Source: Trichodelitschia bisporula
Lineage: Eukaryota
Assembly: GCA_010356995.1 (NCBI GenBank)
Contig: ML996694.1
Span: 681,224 to 745,223, forward strand
Length of the DNA: 64,000 nt
Direction: 5' to 3'
This document shows positions 2,500-29,986 of this stretch, in pieces. How positions within the stretch are numbered: position 1 is the stretch's first letter; every line of letters starts with the position of its first letter. Position numbers and translations under genes: made by a program. A model generated the notes under the pieces. It did no database searches. It was not told the DNA's origin and saw nothing but the letters and a program-made list of their open reading frames with translations.

Positions 2500-3663
2500 C
2501 TATCGCTCTAGTATCATGCCGCGGACCGACTTCCAGTACAGGGGACTGACATGCGTCTGCAGCTCTTCGCCCGAAAGCCACTTGAAGTCCTTCAAGCCGA
2601 ACAGGTTGGTCGCCAGATCCGCCTGGCCGGCCATGATCCTCGCCTTCATGAAGAACACCTTCTCCCCCAGTACCTGGTTGGGGCCGTCAACAACCGGTTT
2701 TAGGAGGTCGAACTTGTAGTAGCCGATGGGGGCATTGCCAACCACCCATGTGTTCATGTTGATACCGCCCGTTTGGACGAGCACACGTTCCGCAGCCTGA
2801 TCCAATTAGAATAATTGTAACATGGCCATGACCAGACGTACCATGTGGAGGTTCTCCCTTCCTTGCAGAATGTCGTTGGGAAAGACCCACCGGCCCTGTT
2901 GGTTCTGGACTAGCAGGTATAGGGTGCGCTGCAGCAGACGGTTCAAGCTCTTCTGATCGTTCAGCTTGTCAGCCTCAGTGATGCGGGGCATGGGTTGCTC
3001 GAGGGACGTGGCCGTCTCCTCCTCCTTGGTCGGCTCCTCAGCATCCTTCAAGAGCTCCTGCATTTGGTGCTCTGGCTCGCTCTCCACTGCCCCGACCAGC
3101 AGCTCGTCATTCCATCCCTCTGCGCCGTACGCATTGTACTTCCCGATGTCGCGAGCAGGCGTCTGCCGTTCCTTGACCCGGCGCTTGTATTGGATGTCGG
3201 CAGGGGTATCTTTGCGGAAGTAGAAGTAGCGGGTAAAGGGCAAAGCGAGTCGTTCATTCAGCCGGCGCTGGTAGAGGAAGAAGGACTTCTCAAAGGGTGT
3301 GAGGTCGCGCGTGATCTGCGGAGGGCGGGAGAGAACCACGCCTGCGCGCATCTGGTAGGACTGGGTGACGGCCGGTGCGGCTTTCGGGATATGTTCAGCA
3401 GTGCGGGGAATCTGCTCTGCGAGGATATTGATTTCGGGGGCTGGCGCAGCTTCAGCTGCAGCAGCGGAGCTGGAGGCATGACGGCGAACGATGCCCGCAC
3501 GACAGGACCGACATATGACGCCCTTGGCCGGATGTGCTTGTTGGTGAGCTCAATTGCAGTAGAAAGGGGGTAGAAAAATACCTTGGGCTGTAAAGGCCCG
3601 GCGAAGGGTGTGCTGGGTCGCGCTCATCTCATATCGATGCAACAGGCGGACGGAGGCTTCCAT
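2500..3663 (-). CDS. MRPL17: Mitochondrial large ribosomal subunit protein mL46 (yeast MRPL17-like), 3 exons
   Basis: AGVVLSRPPQITRDLTPFEKSF, PRITEADKLNDQKSLNRLLQRTLYLLV, C-terminal Nudix-like NTWVVGNAPIG..KVFFMKARIMAGQ; two short GT-AG introns near 3540-3580 and 2800-2840. Confidence 0.88.
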
Positions 3664-3854
3664 GTTGGCGGCCGATGCTGAAAAGTTTGGAGAGACACTT
3701 TAGCGCGCGCTGGGCGGAAAGCGGAGGGCGGAGCCGCAGACCGATGGGCTAGGTAAGCGATTAAGCGCGCTTAGAGGGCAACGAGTATTTAAGAGTTTGA
3801 AGGCTCCTCCCCTCTCCGCCTTTTCTTCTTCTTCCAGACACCAAATCCTTATCA

Positions 3855-3980
3855 CCACTCGACTCTTTGCGCAATGGCGAACTGGTCATTTGACGGTGTC
3901 GAGATAAACTTGCAGACTATTCGCTAACAGTACCTTCGCAAATCTCAAGGCGTACAGTTAGATAGTTTCTGCGGACATAC
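3855..3980 (+). ncRNA. Probable box H/ACA snoRNA
   Basis: Hairpin 1 (CTCGAC/GTCGAG lower stem, AATGGC/GTCATT upper stem), H box AGATAA 3902-3907, long hairpin 2 (TTGCAG/CTGCGG, ACTAT/ATAGT, CTAAC/GTTAG, GTAC/GTAC), then ACA at 3975-3977. TATA-like TATTTAAG at ~3786 and a CT-rich leader upstream. Confidence 0.7.
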
Positions 3981-4481
3981 ATGCATTCACCGTGACGTCT
4001 CTTGAACGTGAATGCCTCCGAGGGACAAGAGCTCAGTACTACGCTGGTGCTGTGCGAATCAAGTGACGGCGAGAAGATCTTGAACATCATTCTCGTGTTC
4101 TAAGCTCGTATGCAGAGTTGCAGGCGCTTTACCGTAGCCTTCTGAGCAGCGGCAGGATATTCATAGTCAGCTTCGGCTTCAGCTTTCAGCTCCAGCTCTA
4201 GCCTAGCTTCAAATCATCACTGCAAGATATCAAATTTTGCTACTACGTGCCCAGTTGCCACTACTATATTTCACCAGTGCCTGCTCAGCGCATAAGCATC
4301 GCCATCTATTCTCACGCGCCCTTAACGCTCCCCATCCAACTAGAGCCGCCCAGTCAAAACCACCCGCCACCAGCGACAACACACTGGACCTGCGCATGCA
4401 GCTCGCCTTGCAACCTCCCGTCGCACCCCAACGCCGGACAAGTCTCTCGAAGGCTGTTGCCCACGGAGGGCATCTTTCGCC

Positions 4482-7173
4482 ATGGCAGAGGGAACCCATA
4501 ATGCGCACATAGATCTCGAGAAGGAGTTGACCTGCTCAGTGCGTGCCCCTGCCTACCCCGCAATGTCCGCCGCTAACACCTCCGCCTTAGATCTGTACAG
4601 ACGTCTTATTCCAGCCTCTCACCCTTCTCGACTGCCTCCACACCTTCTGCGGGGCCTGTCTTAAGGAGTGGTTCCTGTCACAAGCTTCGAGCGCTACCAG
4701 CCTCCATCCTTACACCTGCCCATCATGTCGTGCTTCCGTTCGCGGCACCAAGGCAAATGCCACAGTCACAACGCTACTCGACATGTTCCTACATGCCAAC
4801 CCGGGCAAAGGCAAGACAACCGAGGAGCAGGATGAACAGCGGCGCATCTACAAGCCCGGTGACAACGTGCTCCCTCGTTTGCGCCGCCGCGCCCCAGACA
4901 ACGAGGATGACGAGGACCGCCGTGTACTCGATGAGGTGCGCGAGCTCAGCTTACGCGAGGTGGGCGTGTCAACCACCACACACTCTGCCGAACCAAGAGA
5001 AAGCAGGAGGCGAGGTGGAGGCCACAGTCGGGAACCCTCGCGCGACCGTACTCGCGCCCGCCTTGCCACTCGGCCCGATGGTCAGCGAAGCCGCACCGCC
5101 TCACGCGCCGCCTCGCGAGACACGTCACAAGTTCCGCCACGTCAGGTTGAGCACCAAGCGAGTCTGCGGTCGCTCTTGTCAGCATCAGAAGTAGATCCGC
5201 GGGATTTGGAAGAGGAGATAATGCGTCAGATCGAGGAGGAAGGGCTCTTGGATGGAATCGATCTGAACAACGTAGATGCGGTCCAAGAGAATGAGATAAG
5301 TGAGCGAATCGCCGAGGCTCTCAGGAGAAGGCATGAGGACAGACGGCGAGAAAGGCGTGAAAGAGACCACGCCCTAGCCGCGTCGCAACCTGCAATACCG
5401 ACGACTCGCGAGGCTCCTCCTAGGAGCGTTCCTACAACGGCGCAAAATTCTAGGGACCGGTCGCGACCACCCAACCGGGTGGAGAGCCGACATCAGCGAA
5501 CCGCTTCAGCTCAGCGACCCATCCACTCGTCGTCGGATCTCCCTCCGAATCCAACTCCTTCAGCGGCACTCGGCATGAGAAGGCGAAGTTCGGCCCACGA
5601 GCGGTCTCCCACCGAAATGGAGCGTCAGCGTGTCACGCAGCGAAGCAATTCCGGTCAAACAGGGGAAACACCTGCAAATACCACACGTGTGAGGAGCACT
5701 ACTCAAACCATTGCTGCTGAACCCCGTATGCGCCGTTCTCCTAGGATTGGTAGCTCAACTTTCCCGGTCGACAATCAAAATAGGCGCGCGAACCACAGCT
5801 CGCCGTCCCTTGTCTCCAGCCAGCCAGCTCCGATTGTCGTATCACCGCAGCCGTCTACGCCAACCGGCTCTACTCTATCTGCACAAGCCGTGGTCAATGC
5901 GCCCACATTATCTGAGAGACCAAGAGCGACTTCCGCGACTGCACCAGCTGCTCGACCAACAATGTACACGGAGCCCTCCATTAGCTGTAACCGCTGCGGG
6001 CTGTCGGATATCCAGTACGAGGTTTACTACAACTGTCAACGCTGCCAGTCGGGGAACTACAACCTGTGCCTACGTTGCTACCGCCATGGGAAAGGCTGCC
6101 TCCAATGGTATGGATTCGGCCGGGCCGCTATGCAGAAATACAAGCGGCTGGAGCCTCCGGAAGGCTACCCCCAAGGTCACGAGGAGCCTCATGTACTGAT
6201 CGGCCATCGATATCTGCACCCAACTCACGCAACGCTTCCGGCCTCCCATCCGTCGCGACTGGTTACAGACGAAGATCCTGCAAAGCGGTTACAGAGCGGC
6301 GTCTTCTGTGACATATGCAGCGCATTTGCCAACTCCTGTTACTGGAAATGCGACTCATGCAACGAGGGGGCATGGGGTTTCTGTAACGACTGCGTCAACA
6401 CCGGCCATCATTGCACGCACCCGCTTTTACCCTTGAAGCAAAAACCAGCAAGCCCAGCGCCATCACACCTGGCAGCCCCTTCAGAACCCCATCTCCCCTC
6501 ACCTCCCTCAACCCCTAAGTCCGCCACCTTCCTTCCCGGCCCAAACTCCACGCAACTAGCGAACTCCACCTTCTATCCTCTTACCTTCACCACCAAATGC
6601 AACCGCTGCTCCTACCCCATCTCGCCCTCGCACTCCCGCTTTCACTGCTCCAGCTGCGACAACGGCGACTACGACCTCTGCTCCAGCTGCTACTCCGCCC
6701 TCGCTGCTGCAGGCCGCGTATCGCCCGAAAACGGAGTCGGAGGCTGGCGCCGCTGCCCAAGCGGCCACCGGATGGTGGTCGTAGGCTTCGAAGACCGCGA
6801 CGGAGGCCAGAGACGCGTGGTCGTGCGGGACTTGGTCGGGGGGCATGCGCTGCGTGAGGACGGGGAGTCGCATGGCGCGCTTGCCACGCCGAATTGGAGC
6901 TGGAGGGATGCGGACGGGACGGTTCGCCGGGCGAGGTCGGCACGGGCTAATGTCTCGGGCCTAGGCCGGTTTCCGCCTGATAGTGGCGTGGGTATGCGCG
7001 TGCTGGGTGAGTGGGGCTATTTCCCGGCTGATGGTGTGGTGGATGAACTTATGTTCCCGAGAGGAGCGGAGGTGCGTGAGGTGGAGGATATCAATGGGGA
7101 TTGGTTTTGGGGAGTTTATGCTGGGGCGAAGGGGTTATTTCCTGGGAACTATGTGCGGTATCTAGCGGGGTAG
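4482..7173 (+). CDS. RING finger + three ZZ-type zinc fingers + C-terminal SH3 protein (putative E3 ligase)
   Basis: Intron 4539-4590 joins LEKELTCS|ICTDVLFQPLTLLDCLHTFCGAC..CPSCR (RING-HC); three CxxC..CxxC..CxxC ZZ-like units; SH3 ELMFPRGAEVREVEDINGDWFWG..GLFPGNYV. Confidence 0.88.
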
Positions 7174-28437: not shown

Positions 28438-29986
28438 CTACAACCCGGCCGCAAGCACATCCTTCTTCATCGCCTTACACCCCACCTTATCATCCAACTC
28501 AGGCCCGACAAGCTGATCATCATACTCCCCAAACACCAACACCGGCCCCTCGCCCGCCGTAACCTTCGGCCACCCCGCCGGTTGCCCCGTGTACGCCAAA
28601 TCCGCCCACCGGCCCTGCATCGCGCCGCTGACCCGCGCCAACTCACTCTCATTATACGTCCTAAACACCGCCCCGATCTCAAAGCTATGCCACGCGCCGG
28701 CGTGCGGGAAGGGCGCGCTCTTCGCCTTTACGTCGAACACGTACCGATACACGTCGTACCCGGACTTCGCAGCGTGGTCCGCGAGCTCGGCGGCGGGGCA
28801 TTGGAAGGTTAGGGCTGTGACTGCGGCGGCGGTAGCGGGGAAAGAGGTAGCGGCGAAGTCCAGTCCGCCGAAGATGCCGGCGAAGGCGGAGCCGTCGTCC
28901 GCATTTGACCCGATGATCAGCGGCACTTTCGCCGCTTTGCCGCTCGTGAAGCGCGCGGCAACGTCAGCCGTGCGCGTAATTTCGTCGGCCACGGGATCGA
29001 ACCCGAGATTTGCGCGCTCGATGGTGTCCTTGATCGCCTCGGCGGGTACGGCGCGGAGACACGTCAGCGGCGAAGGGGCGAAGGTGCAGTTCGTGGCTTT
29101 CAGCAAGGTCGTATAGCTCGTTTCCCCGCCGGTCACGCCCATGGCGTTGGATTCGAGGATGGCGGCGCGGAAGGGGAGCGGGTTGGGCGGGAGCGCAACG
29201 AGTTGCTTAACCGACCAAGCGCCCGCGCTCTCGCCAAAGATGGTGACTTGGGCTGGGTTGCCGGAGAAGGAGGCGATGTTGGCCTGCACCCACTTCAGTG
29301 CGAGGCGTTGGTCAAGGAAGCCCGGGTTTGCCTCGCCGTTGGGGAGTTCGGGGGAGTTGGGGAAGCCGAAGACTGCTTACGTTAGGAGGGGTGTGGAAGG
29401 AGTGGTTTCTGGGGGGGACGTACCATTGGTGCGGTAGTTAATATTCACGAGCACGACATCGCGCTGCAGCGCAAACTTCTCCCCGTTATACACCGGTAGA
29501 CTCGCGGCGCCGGCCTGCAGATTCCCGCCGTAGATCCACACCATGACCGGGAAGCCGCCTTTAGGCGCGGGGCCGGACGGGCTCCACACGTTTAGGTACA
29601 GGCAGTCTTCGCTCTCGGGCTGGATGGGCATGTTGAAGACTTCGATGGTGAAGTTGCGGACTTTTTCCGGATCTGTGCGAGTCAGTATCTGGAGTTAGAG
29701 CAAGGAGGAGGGGAGGGCCGTGAGACGCACAATTGAACTGCGTGATGCAGCTCGGCTTGTAGTTTGTTGCATCCAGCGCCTCGGTCCACGCATTCGGCTC
29801 CTTGGGGGCGCCGAACCGCAGAGGCGGCGATTCGGCGAAGGGAATACCGAGGAATTCATTGACGCCGCTGTCCAGCGTCTTTCCCGTCACGGGACCCTGC
29901 GCCGTCTTCGCAGTCGGAGCGGTAGCGAGCGGCGCGGCGGCGGCGACGGCGGCCAGCGCCGCGGTGAGGAGGGCGCGCGGCGACAT
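28438..29986 (-). CDS. Secreted type-B carboxylesterase/lipase, 3 exons
   Basis: Signal peptide, FLGIPFA, SEDCLYLNVW, WIYGG, NYR, nucleophile elbow GESAG, catalytic His in GAWHSFEI. Confidence 0.92.

Follow-up and report, generated by a model that had tools for sequence, protein, structure and literature searches.

A very probable ortholog of the Neurospora crassa box H/ACA snoRNA Nc ACA2 (HACA_2) in Trichodelitschia bisporula

Box H/ACA small nucleolar RNAs (snoRNAs) carry an H box (ANANNA) in the hinge and, 3 nt from the 3′ end of the mature RNA, an ACA box. Here we describe a locus in Trichodelitschia bisporula, within a stretch of 64,000 nt (the window; assembly GCA_010356995.1, contig ML996694.1, positions 681,224 to 745,223), whose plus-strand positions 3837–3980 very probably encode a canonical two-hairpin snoRNA of this class, orthologous to Nc ACA2/HACA_2 of Neurospora crassa. 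Nc ACA2 (EU780981, 159 nt) is reported as an intergenic RNA detected by northern blot and reverse transcription (Liu et al. 2009, PMC2780460). Its H-box hairpin is predicted to guide 26S-Psi1868, for which Table 2 of that paper lists no homologue in human, Arabidopsis or the yeasts S. pombe and S. cerevisiae, and its ACA hairpin 26S-Psi2313, for which the same table gives S. cerevisiae snR82 as the homologue. The pairings drawn in its Additional file 5 are UUAUC...CAUU(N12)AGAGGA with 5′-AAUG-Psi-A-GAUAA and UUCGC...GAUAG(N9)ACA with 5′-CUAUC-Psi-A-GCGAA. The class rule given there is a bipartite complementarity of 9–13 bp around the U, 14–16 nt from the H or ACA box (PMC2780460).

The family has also been traced across fungi as HACA_2 (Nc_HACA_2), a double guide that is dated to the root of Dikarya or earlier and described as absent from Saccharomycotina (Canzler et al. 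2018, PMC5824354). According to that study, its second hairpin targets 25S-2351, a site taken over in Saccharomycotina by snR82 (HACA_31); the second hairpins of HACA_2 and HACA_31 are convincingly homologous, whereas the first hairpins are "fairly diverged". Like HACA_2, S. cerevisiae snR82 guides 25S-Psi2351 with its second hairpin, but it is listed for 25S-Psi1110 and Psi2349 as well (PMC5699541, Table 1), and HACA_31 is specific to Saccharomycotina. Because the first hairpins have diverged and HACA_31 is described as confined to that group, we did not file the window locus under snR82/HACA_31.

Boxes, guide strands and predicted rRNA targets

A preliminary description of the locus, made from sequence alone, had proposed a hairpin, an AGATAA box, a long hairpin and an ACA box behind a TATA-like element and a CT-rich leader, and all of these are present on the plus strand, on which all snoRNA features given here lie. 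The H box AGAUAA, which conforms to ANANNA, occupies 3902–3907, and the ACA box 3975–3977, one base to the left of the position first assigned to it. The long hairpin 2 spans 3910–3974. Its 7-bp lower stem joins UUGCAGA (3910–3916) to UCUGCGG (3968–3974) and ends directly at the ACA box, and its guide strands UUCGC (3920–3924) and GAUAGU (3961–3966), shifted by 1–2 nt from the pocket strands proposed earlier, enclose the upper stem-loop (3925–3960) in the predicted fold. Hairpin 1 opens with a lower stem of GACACC (3837–3842) and GGUGUC (3895–3900), obtained both as the minimum free energy (MFE) structure of 3837–3907 and in a constrained fold. Its 5′ pocket strand (3843–3853) contains the guide strand UCCUUAUC (3846–3853), and its 3′ pocket strand (3887–3894) starts with the guide strand CAUU (3887–3890). 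The upper stem-loop between them (3854–3886) is closed by ACCA (3854–3857) and UGGU (3883–3886), which form a helix in RNAalifold and in the constrained fold. Two features set the 5′ end of the RNA, namely the conserved lower stem and the start of the cloned N. crassa RNA at the equivalent GGCAC; the 3′ end was predicted from the ACA+3 rule. Because the conserved hairpin 1 starts upstream, at 3837, the predicted mature RNA measures ~144 nt and not the ~125 nt proposed before.

All four guide strands of Nc ACA2 recur in the window in the same arrangement, as UUAUC...CAUU(N11)AGAUAA (3849–3853, 3887–3890) and UUCGC...GAUAG(N9)ACA (3920–3924, 3961–3965), hairpin 1 having N11 instead of N12. Compared by eye, the two RNAs share an ordered series of blocks along their length: G[G/A]CACCA, UCCUUAUCA, CUG[A/G]UCAUUU, G[U/G]G[C/U]CGAGA and GCAGAC, followed by AUUCGCUA, GUACC, GUUAGAUAG, UCUGC and ACAUA. 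The cloned Nc ACA2 RNA is reported to begin GGCACCAUUCCUUAUCAUCA (PMC2780460), a start with which the redrawn 5′ end of the window RNA agrees. Both RNAs comprise two hairpins, keep N9 between GAUAG and ACA, open with a comparable lower stem (GGCAC in Nc ACA2, GACAC in the window), lie in intergenic DNA and share the predicted large-subunit (LSU) rRNA targets 26S-Psi1868 and 26S-Psi2313. They differ in length (159 nt in Nc ACA2 versus ~144 nt here), in the H box (AGAGGA versus AGAUAA), in the hairpin 1 spacing and in the sequence of their upper stems and loops. The locus is an ordinary ortholog of an already described family, hence known and not new, and the snoStrip supplements may already list the copy of this species.

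To place the guide strands on rRNA, we used LSU loci retrieved from assemblies with a 22-nt LSU motif. The motif matched at least 17 contigs in bacterial assemblies (L004–L020), which are eukaryotic rDNA contamination of prokaryote assemblies, and all five motif-bearing contigs that were tested are eukaryotic LSU rRNA by Rfam. The pocket of hairpin 2 pairs GAUAGU and UUCGC with ACUAUC-U-A-GCGAA in 5/5 of these LSU loci (6+5 bp, all Watson-Crick), the top of the pocket lying 14 nt from the ACA box. The predicted target CUAUC-U-A-GCGAA corresponds to N. crassa 26S-Psi2313 and to S. cerevisiae 25S-Psi2351, the snR82 site. In hairpin 1, UCCUUAUC and CAUU pair with AATG-T-A-GGTAAGGG in L006 and L008 (8+4 bp, the 8 bp including two G-U pairs), 15 nt from the H box, the site being present in these two loci as AATG-TA-GGTAA. 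The same site was also found by four of the five fungal-type homologues introduced below, and the predicted target AAUG-U-A-GAUAA(GG) corresponds to N. crassa 26S-Psi1868. By analogy with its class, the snoRNA would assemble with Cbf5/dyskerin, Nop10, Gar1 and Nhp2, and the resulting ribonucleoprotein would guide two uridine-to-pseudouridine conversions in LSU rRNA. Hairpin 2 would hold CUAUC-U-A-GCGAA in its pocket (S. cerevisiae 25S-2351, a site served there by snR82) and hairpin 1 would hold AAUG-U-A-GAUAA(GG), the site of N. crassa 26S-1868.

These pairings bear on the earlier suggestion that the target was unsettled and the RNA perhaps an orphan guide without an rRNA target. That view drew on the want of a clean target among the rRNA stretches considered, and the lack of a Rfam family at gathering score would fit it. 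However, both pockets show canonical bipartite LSU complementarity at 14 and 15 nt from their boxes, and the pairings, reproduced here on eukaryotic LSU rRNA confirmed by Rfam, are the very ones drawn for Nc ACA2 (PMC2780460, Additional file 5), which makes an orphan guide highly improbable.

Several other candidate sites were set aside. An assignment of hairpin 2 to the snR3 site 25S-Psi2133 was dropped, the site in L010 lying 1040 nt from the LSU 3′ end; the literature likewise gives 25S-2351 and snR82 instead. Higher-scoring matches of hairpin 2 lay only 8–9 nt from the ACA box, a non-canonical distance. For hairpin 1, a second recurrent site in the small-subunit (SSU) rRNA of L020 (position 564, TGAT-TA-ATAGGGA) was found for four of five homologues at 15–17 nt from the box; it is a weaker alternative that relies on G-U pairs and upper-stem bases. 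An 18-nt LSU motif gave three matches in viral contigs, none of them rRNA by Rfam, and these were taken as chance. Among the contaminant contigs, which come from bacterial isolates and metagenome-assembled genomes, L020 carries a near-complete SSU-5.8S-LSU unit and L010 an LSU-5S link.

The conserved 5′ hairpin and metagenomic homologues

Homologues were sought in metagenomes with a pattern made of the two conserved pocket blocks and the ACA box, which returned 42 matches in 39 loci, or 33 unique sequences. Five of the 33 (L027, L028, L030, L041 and L046) form no hairpin, were taken as chance and are excluded from alignment A3. Lower stems of 6 bp or more occur in 22 of 34 sequences (the 33 and the window), compared with 14.5% of controls with shuffled 3′ strands, and these lower stems mostly end at the ACA box. 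Lower stems of 5 bp or longer are formed by 26 sequences, among which the 3′ strand of that stem takes 20 distinct forms. In 24/34, the conserved block is directly followed by an upper stem of 4 bp or more, with 11 distinct sequences. In L021, the hairpin 2 lower stem UAGCAGU/ACUGCUA is compensatory relative to the window. Together, the compensatory stem changes in homologues and the block-by-block match to the N. crassa snoRNA show that the architecture is more than chance.

Conservation extends to the 5′ half of the RNA. One block outside the search pattern, CCTTATCA, occurs in 5/5 fungal-type sequences (the window, L021, L045, L049 and L040) and does not vary in alignment A1. In the RNAalifold structure, the bases immediately 3′ of this block pair with a conserved UGGU/UGAU that precedes CAUU, with compensatory changes, for example C-G in the window versus U-A in L021 (columns 20–25/48–53). 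In the MAFFT alignment, L040 and L049 are misplaced in hairpin 1. Covariation is seen in the hairpin 1 lower stem as well: GACAC(C)/(G)GUGUC in the window stands against GGCGC/GUGCC in L021, GGCAC/GUGCC in L045 and GGCA/UGCC in L049, and N. crassa has GGCAC/GUGCC (by eye). When 3837–3907 is folded alone, the redrawn hairpin 1 is the MFE structure, and the same fold is the MFE structure of hairpin 1 in L021 (z = -2.0), L045 (z = -3.6) and L040 (z = -2.8). Position 3837 thus opens the conserved 5′ hairpin, and what had been read as a leader is its guide strand.

The preliminary description had instead drawn the 5′ hairpin as CUCGAC (3858–3863) paired with GUCGAG (3898–3903), which, as the functional fold, would leave hairpin 1 a structural element with no guide role. 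This fold is indeed the MFE structure of the full-length RNA, and its pocket is nearly closed. Yet its upper stem runs to 3890, placing the pocket top only ~11 nt from the H box, it is absent as a fold in L021, L045 and L040, whose MFE structures follow the revised hairpin, and only a role as guide strands accounts for the invariant blocks CCUUAUC and CAUU. The best rRNA match for its pocket, GACATTGTCAGG-TG-GGGAGTT in L010 (12+7 bp), enters the lower stem, needs G-U pairs and, judged by eye, is not retained in L021; it was rejected as a target. The hairpin first drawn is a thermodynamic optimum but not the conserved fold, and that it is the functional one here is decidedly improbable.

Spacing within the homologues is not uniform. 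GAUAG lies 14 nt before the ACA box in the window, L021 and L045 and 16 nt before it in most other homologues, a difference that would, by inference, shift or broaden the choice of U from the ACUAUCUAG cluster in the pocket. The SNORA62-like strand GAUAGUAG is found in most of the 28 metagenomic homologues that form a hairpin. In L040 (355–438), an extra small hairpin, UCUAGUGCUAGA, stands between the hairpin 1 lower stem and the AGAAUA box, and owing to it the pocket is 19 nt from that box; the 3′ guide strand of this homologue differs too (UAUUGU) and, judged by eye, pairs in a different register at the same LSU site. SNORA62-like H/ACA copies also occur in tandem on single metagenomic contigs, ~170–210 nt apart, three in L044 (2099–2532) and two in L026 (92–328), an arrangement that suggests a cluster, either polycistronic or made by tandem duplication, in some eukaryote.

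Genomic setting and transcription

The snoRNA gene lies between two protein-coding genes, and no open reading frame of at least 60 aa overlaps 3574–4229 on either strand. On the minus strand, the divergent neighbour is mL46 (Pfam MRP-L46, E = 6.5e-33 on the main exon), earlier placed ~200 bp away; its in-frame ATGs at 3663 and 3627 are 174 and 210 bp from the snoRNA start, and its introns, 2796–2840 and 3537–3581, are both 45 nt long. RNA contigs of mL46 stop at 3639/3640, between these two candidate starts (3582–3663, minus strand). The plus-strand neighbour, with its ATG at 4482 and an intron at 4539–4590 (GT..AG), carries a ZZ zinc finger. Introns as short as those of the two neighbours would suit a filamentous fungus.

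A contig from each of two sequencing runs covers the snoRNA, 3848–4253 in run X1 and 3835–4165 in run X2. Both runs, though not recorded as such, represent RNA, since their contigs skip the three introns at 2796–2840, 3537–3581 and 4539–4590; they come from one sample of one study and are unstranded, and their contigs cannot define transcript ends. The region is transcribed from about the snoRNA start. A TATA-like element, TATTTAA (3786–3792, plus strand), lies 51 nt upstream of the RNA start, followed by a CT-rich tract (3806–3834, plus strand) of putative promoter role, and a TATA-containing promoter of its own appears to drive the snoRNA gene. Among the homologues, a TATATA run spans -42 to -31 in L021, and L045 has TATATA at -17.

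Beyond the predicted 3′ end, the same unstranded contigs extend over 3981–4253. This extension may be precursor; the stretch would then belong to a 3′-extended precursor of the snoRNA, or else to an upstream-starting 5′ untranslated region (UTR) of the next gene. Contigs starting at the snoRNA reach 4165 and 4253, far past ACA+3, as would be expected if the snoRNA, though real, were excised from a longer transcript, whether an extended precursor or a ZZ-gene RNA that includes it in a long 5′ UTR or an upstream exon. Such a carrier has a parallel in N. crassa, where 2/20 H/ACA snoRNAs are reported in a 3′ UTR or in an exon plus 3′ UTR (PMC2780460). Against such a carrier stand the TATA-like element upstream of the RNA and the intergenic position of Nc ACA2, shared with 16/20 N. 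crassa H/ACA genes in the same report. None of the contigs listed bridges 4254–4381 to the contigs of the ZZ gene, which start at 4382 and 4408, although such a gap proves nothing. The contigs likewise leave 3641–3834 uncovered, and neither stretch was used as evidence. The TATA-like element and the intergenic habit of the N. crassa genes favour an independent unit; we consider a carrier transcript rather unlikely and the snoRNA gene likely to stand alone. The independent transcription proposed at the outset is consistent with the TATA-like element, the contig starts at 3835 and 3848 and the intergenic ortholog. We see only a slim chance that the transcript beginning at the snoRNA 5′ end is a stable, 3′-extended and perhaps polyadenylated RNA headed by the snoRNA, or else a ZZ mRNA initiated upstream; either, if true, would couple snoRNA output to expression of the ZZ gene.

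Other features of the surroundings were noted. The CT-rich promoter tract gave a weak mir-1281 match (3773–3816, plus strand; 19.7 bits versus a gathering score of 70, E = 2), most likely a composition effect. On the minus strand at 4150–4224, within the transcribed stretch, a C-box-like GUGAUGA precedes three CUGA motifs in GCT/GAA-rich sequence, with weak Rfam matches to box C/D families (sno_ZL63, 15.7 bits; sR14, 11.6 bits; E 2.6–4.4). We dismissed a box C/D gene here, as no terminal stem is visible. Finally, CCTTATCAYCA has, with one mismatch allowed, five other copies in the window, for example at 28485–28495 (plus strand), giving six matches versus 1.45 expected, and 0/100 shuffles reach six.

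Assignment to the HACA_2 family

A permissive cmscan with Rfam models over 3600–4500 aligned the 3′ hairpin with two families. SNORA62/SNORA6 (RF00091, clan CL00040) and nematode ceN58 (RF01645; 13.4 bits, gathering score 60) both align UUCGCUAACA ... AGUUnGAUAG ... ACA, that is, the 3′ pocket, including UUCGC at 3920–3924, and the ACA box. On account of this common 3′ pocket, hairpin 2 would work like that of SNORA62 and ceN58. The 5′ hairpin of SNORA62 is, in contrast, unmatched in the window (5 nt versus 64 model positions), and at 16.2 bits versus a gathering score of 80 the locus falls outside RF00091. Human E2 is given as a homologue of Nc ACA18 (Psi2309) and not of Nc ACA2 in Liu et al. 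(PMC2780460). Overall, Rfam agrees weakly with an H/ACA identity.

A number of observations count against assigning the locus to Nc ACA2/HACA_2. At gathering score, Rfam gave no match in the 64-kb window, and the SNORA62 alignment has E = 2 and is limited to the 3′ hairpin. The fold energy of the locus is not significant against shuffles (z = -1.25 and -1.14; 18 and 29 of 200 shuffles fold equally well), and the full-length MFE structure takes the rival 5′ hairpin, the canonical open-pocket fold having -25.5 versus -33.0 kcal/mol. The likeness to EU780981 was judged solely by eye. Among the homologues, the H boxes of L021 (AGAGUU) and L045 (AGAGCC) depart from ANANNA, and mL46 or ZZ-gene homologues were found by tblastn beside the snoRNA in 0/39 metagenomic loci, so that synteny lends no support. 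On the target side, the loci fetched with the 22-nt LSU motif are not the rRNA of this species; they contain the hairpin 2 site by construction, the site being part of the motif, and only their LSU identity is independent. The one full-length LSU locus, the divergent L020, lacks the hairpin 1 site motif. The RNA contigs, unstranded and from a single study, run 185–273 nt past ACA+3, to 4165 and 4253.

The non-significant z-scores and the missing match at the Rfam threshold would also be expected if there were no RNA gene at all and H/ACA-like motifs had arisen by chance within a promoter or 5′ UTR. This is scarcely credible, as conservation runs over the full length with covarying stems in unrelated contigs and the RNA matches a cloned N. 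crassa snoRNA; the homologues already contradict it. An H/ACA guide RNA gene, as first described, lying between the two protein genes, and more specifically an ortholog of Nc ACA2/HACA_2, agrees with both the covarying homologues and the N. crassa snoRNA detected by Liu et al.

Beyond annotation, the finding matters little: the locus can be labelled an HACA_2/Nc ACA2 ortholog with two predicted LSU pseudouridylation sites. It also illustrates that folding a single sequence to its MFE structure can misdraw a 5′ hairpin and conceal a guide strand in an apparent leader, and that this fungal family escapes Rfam at its curated thresholds.

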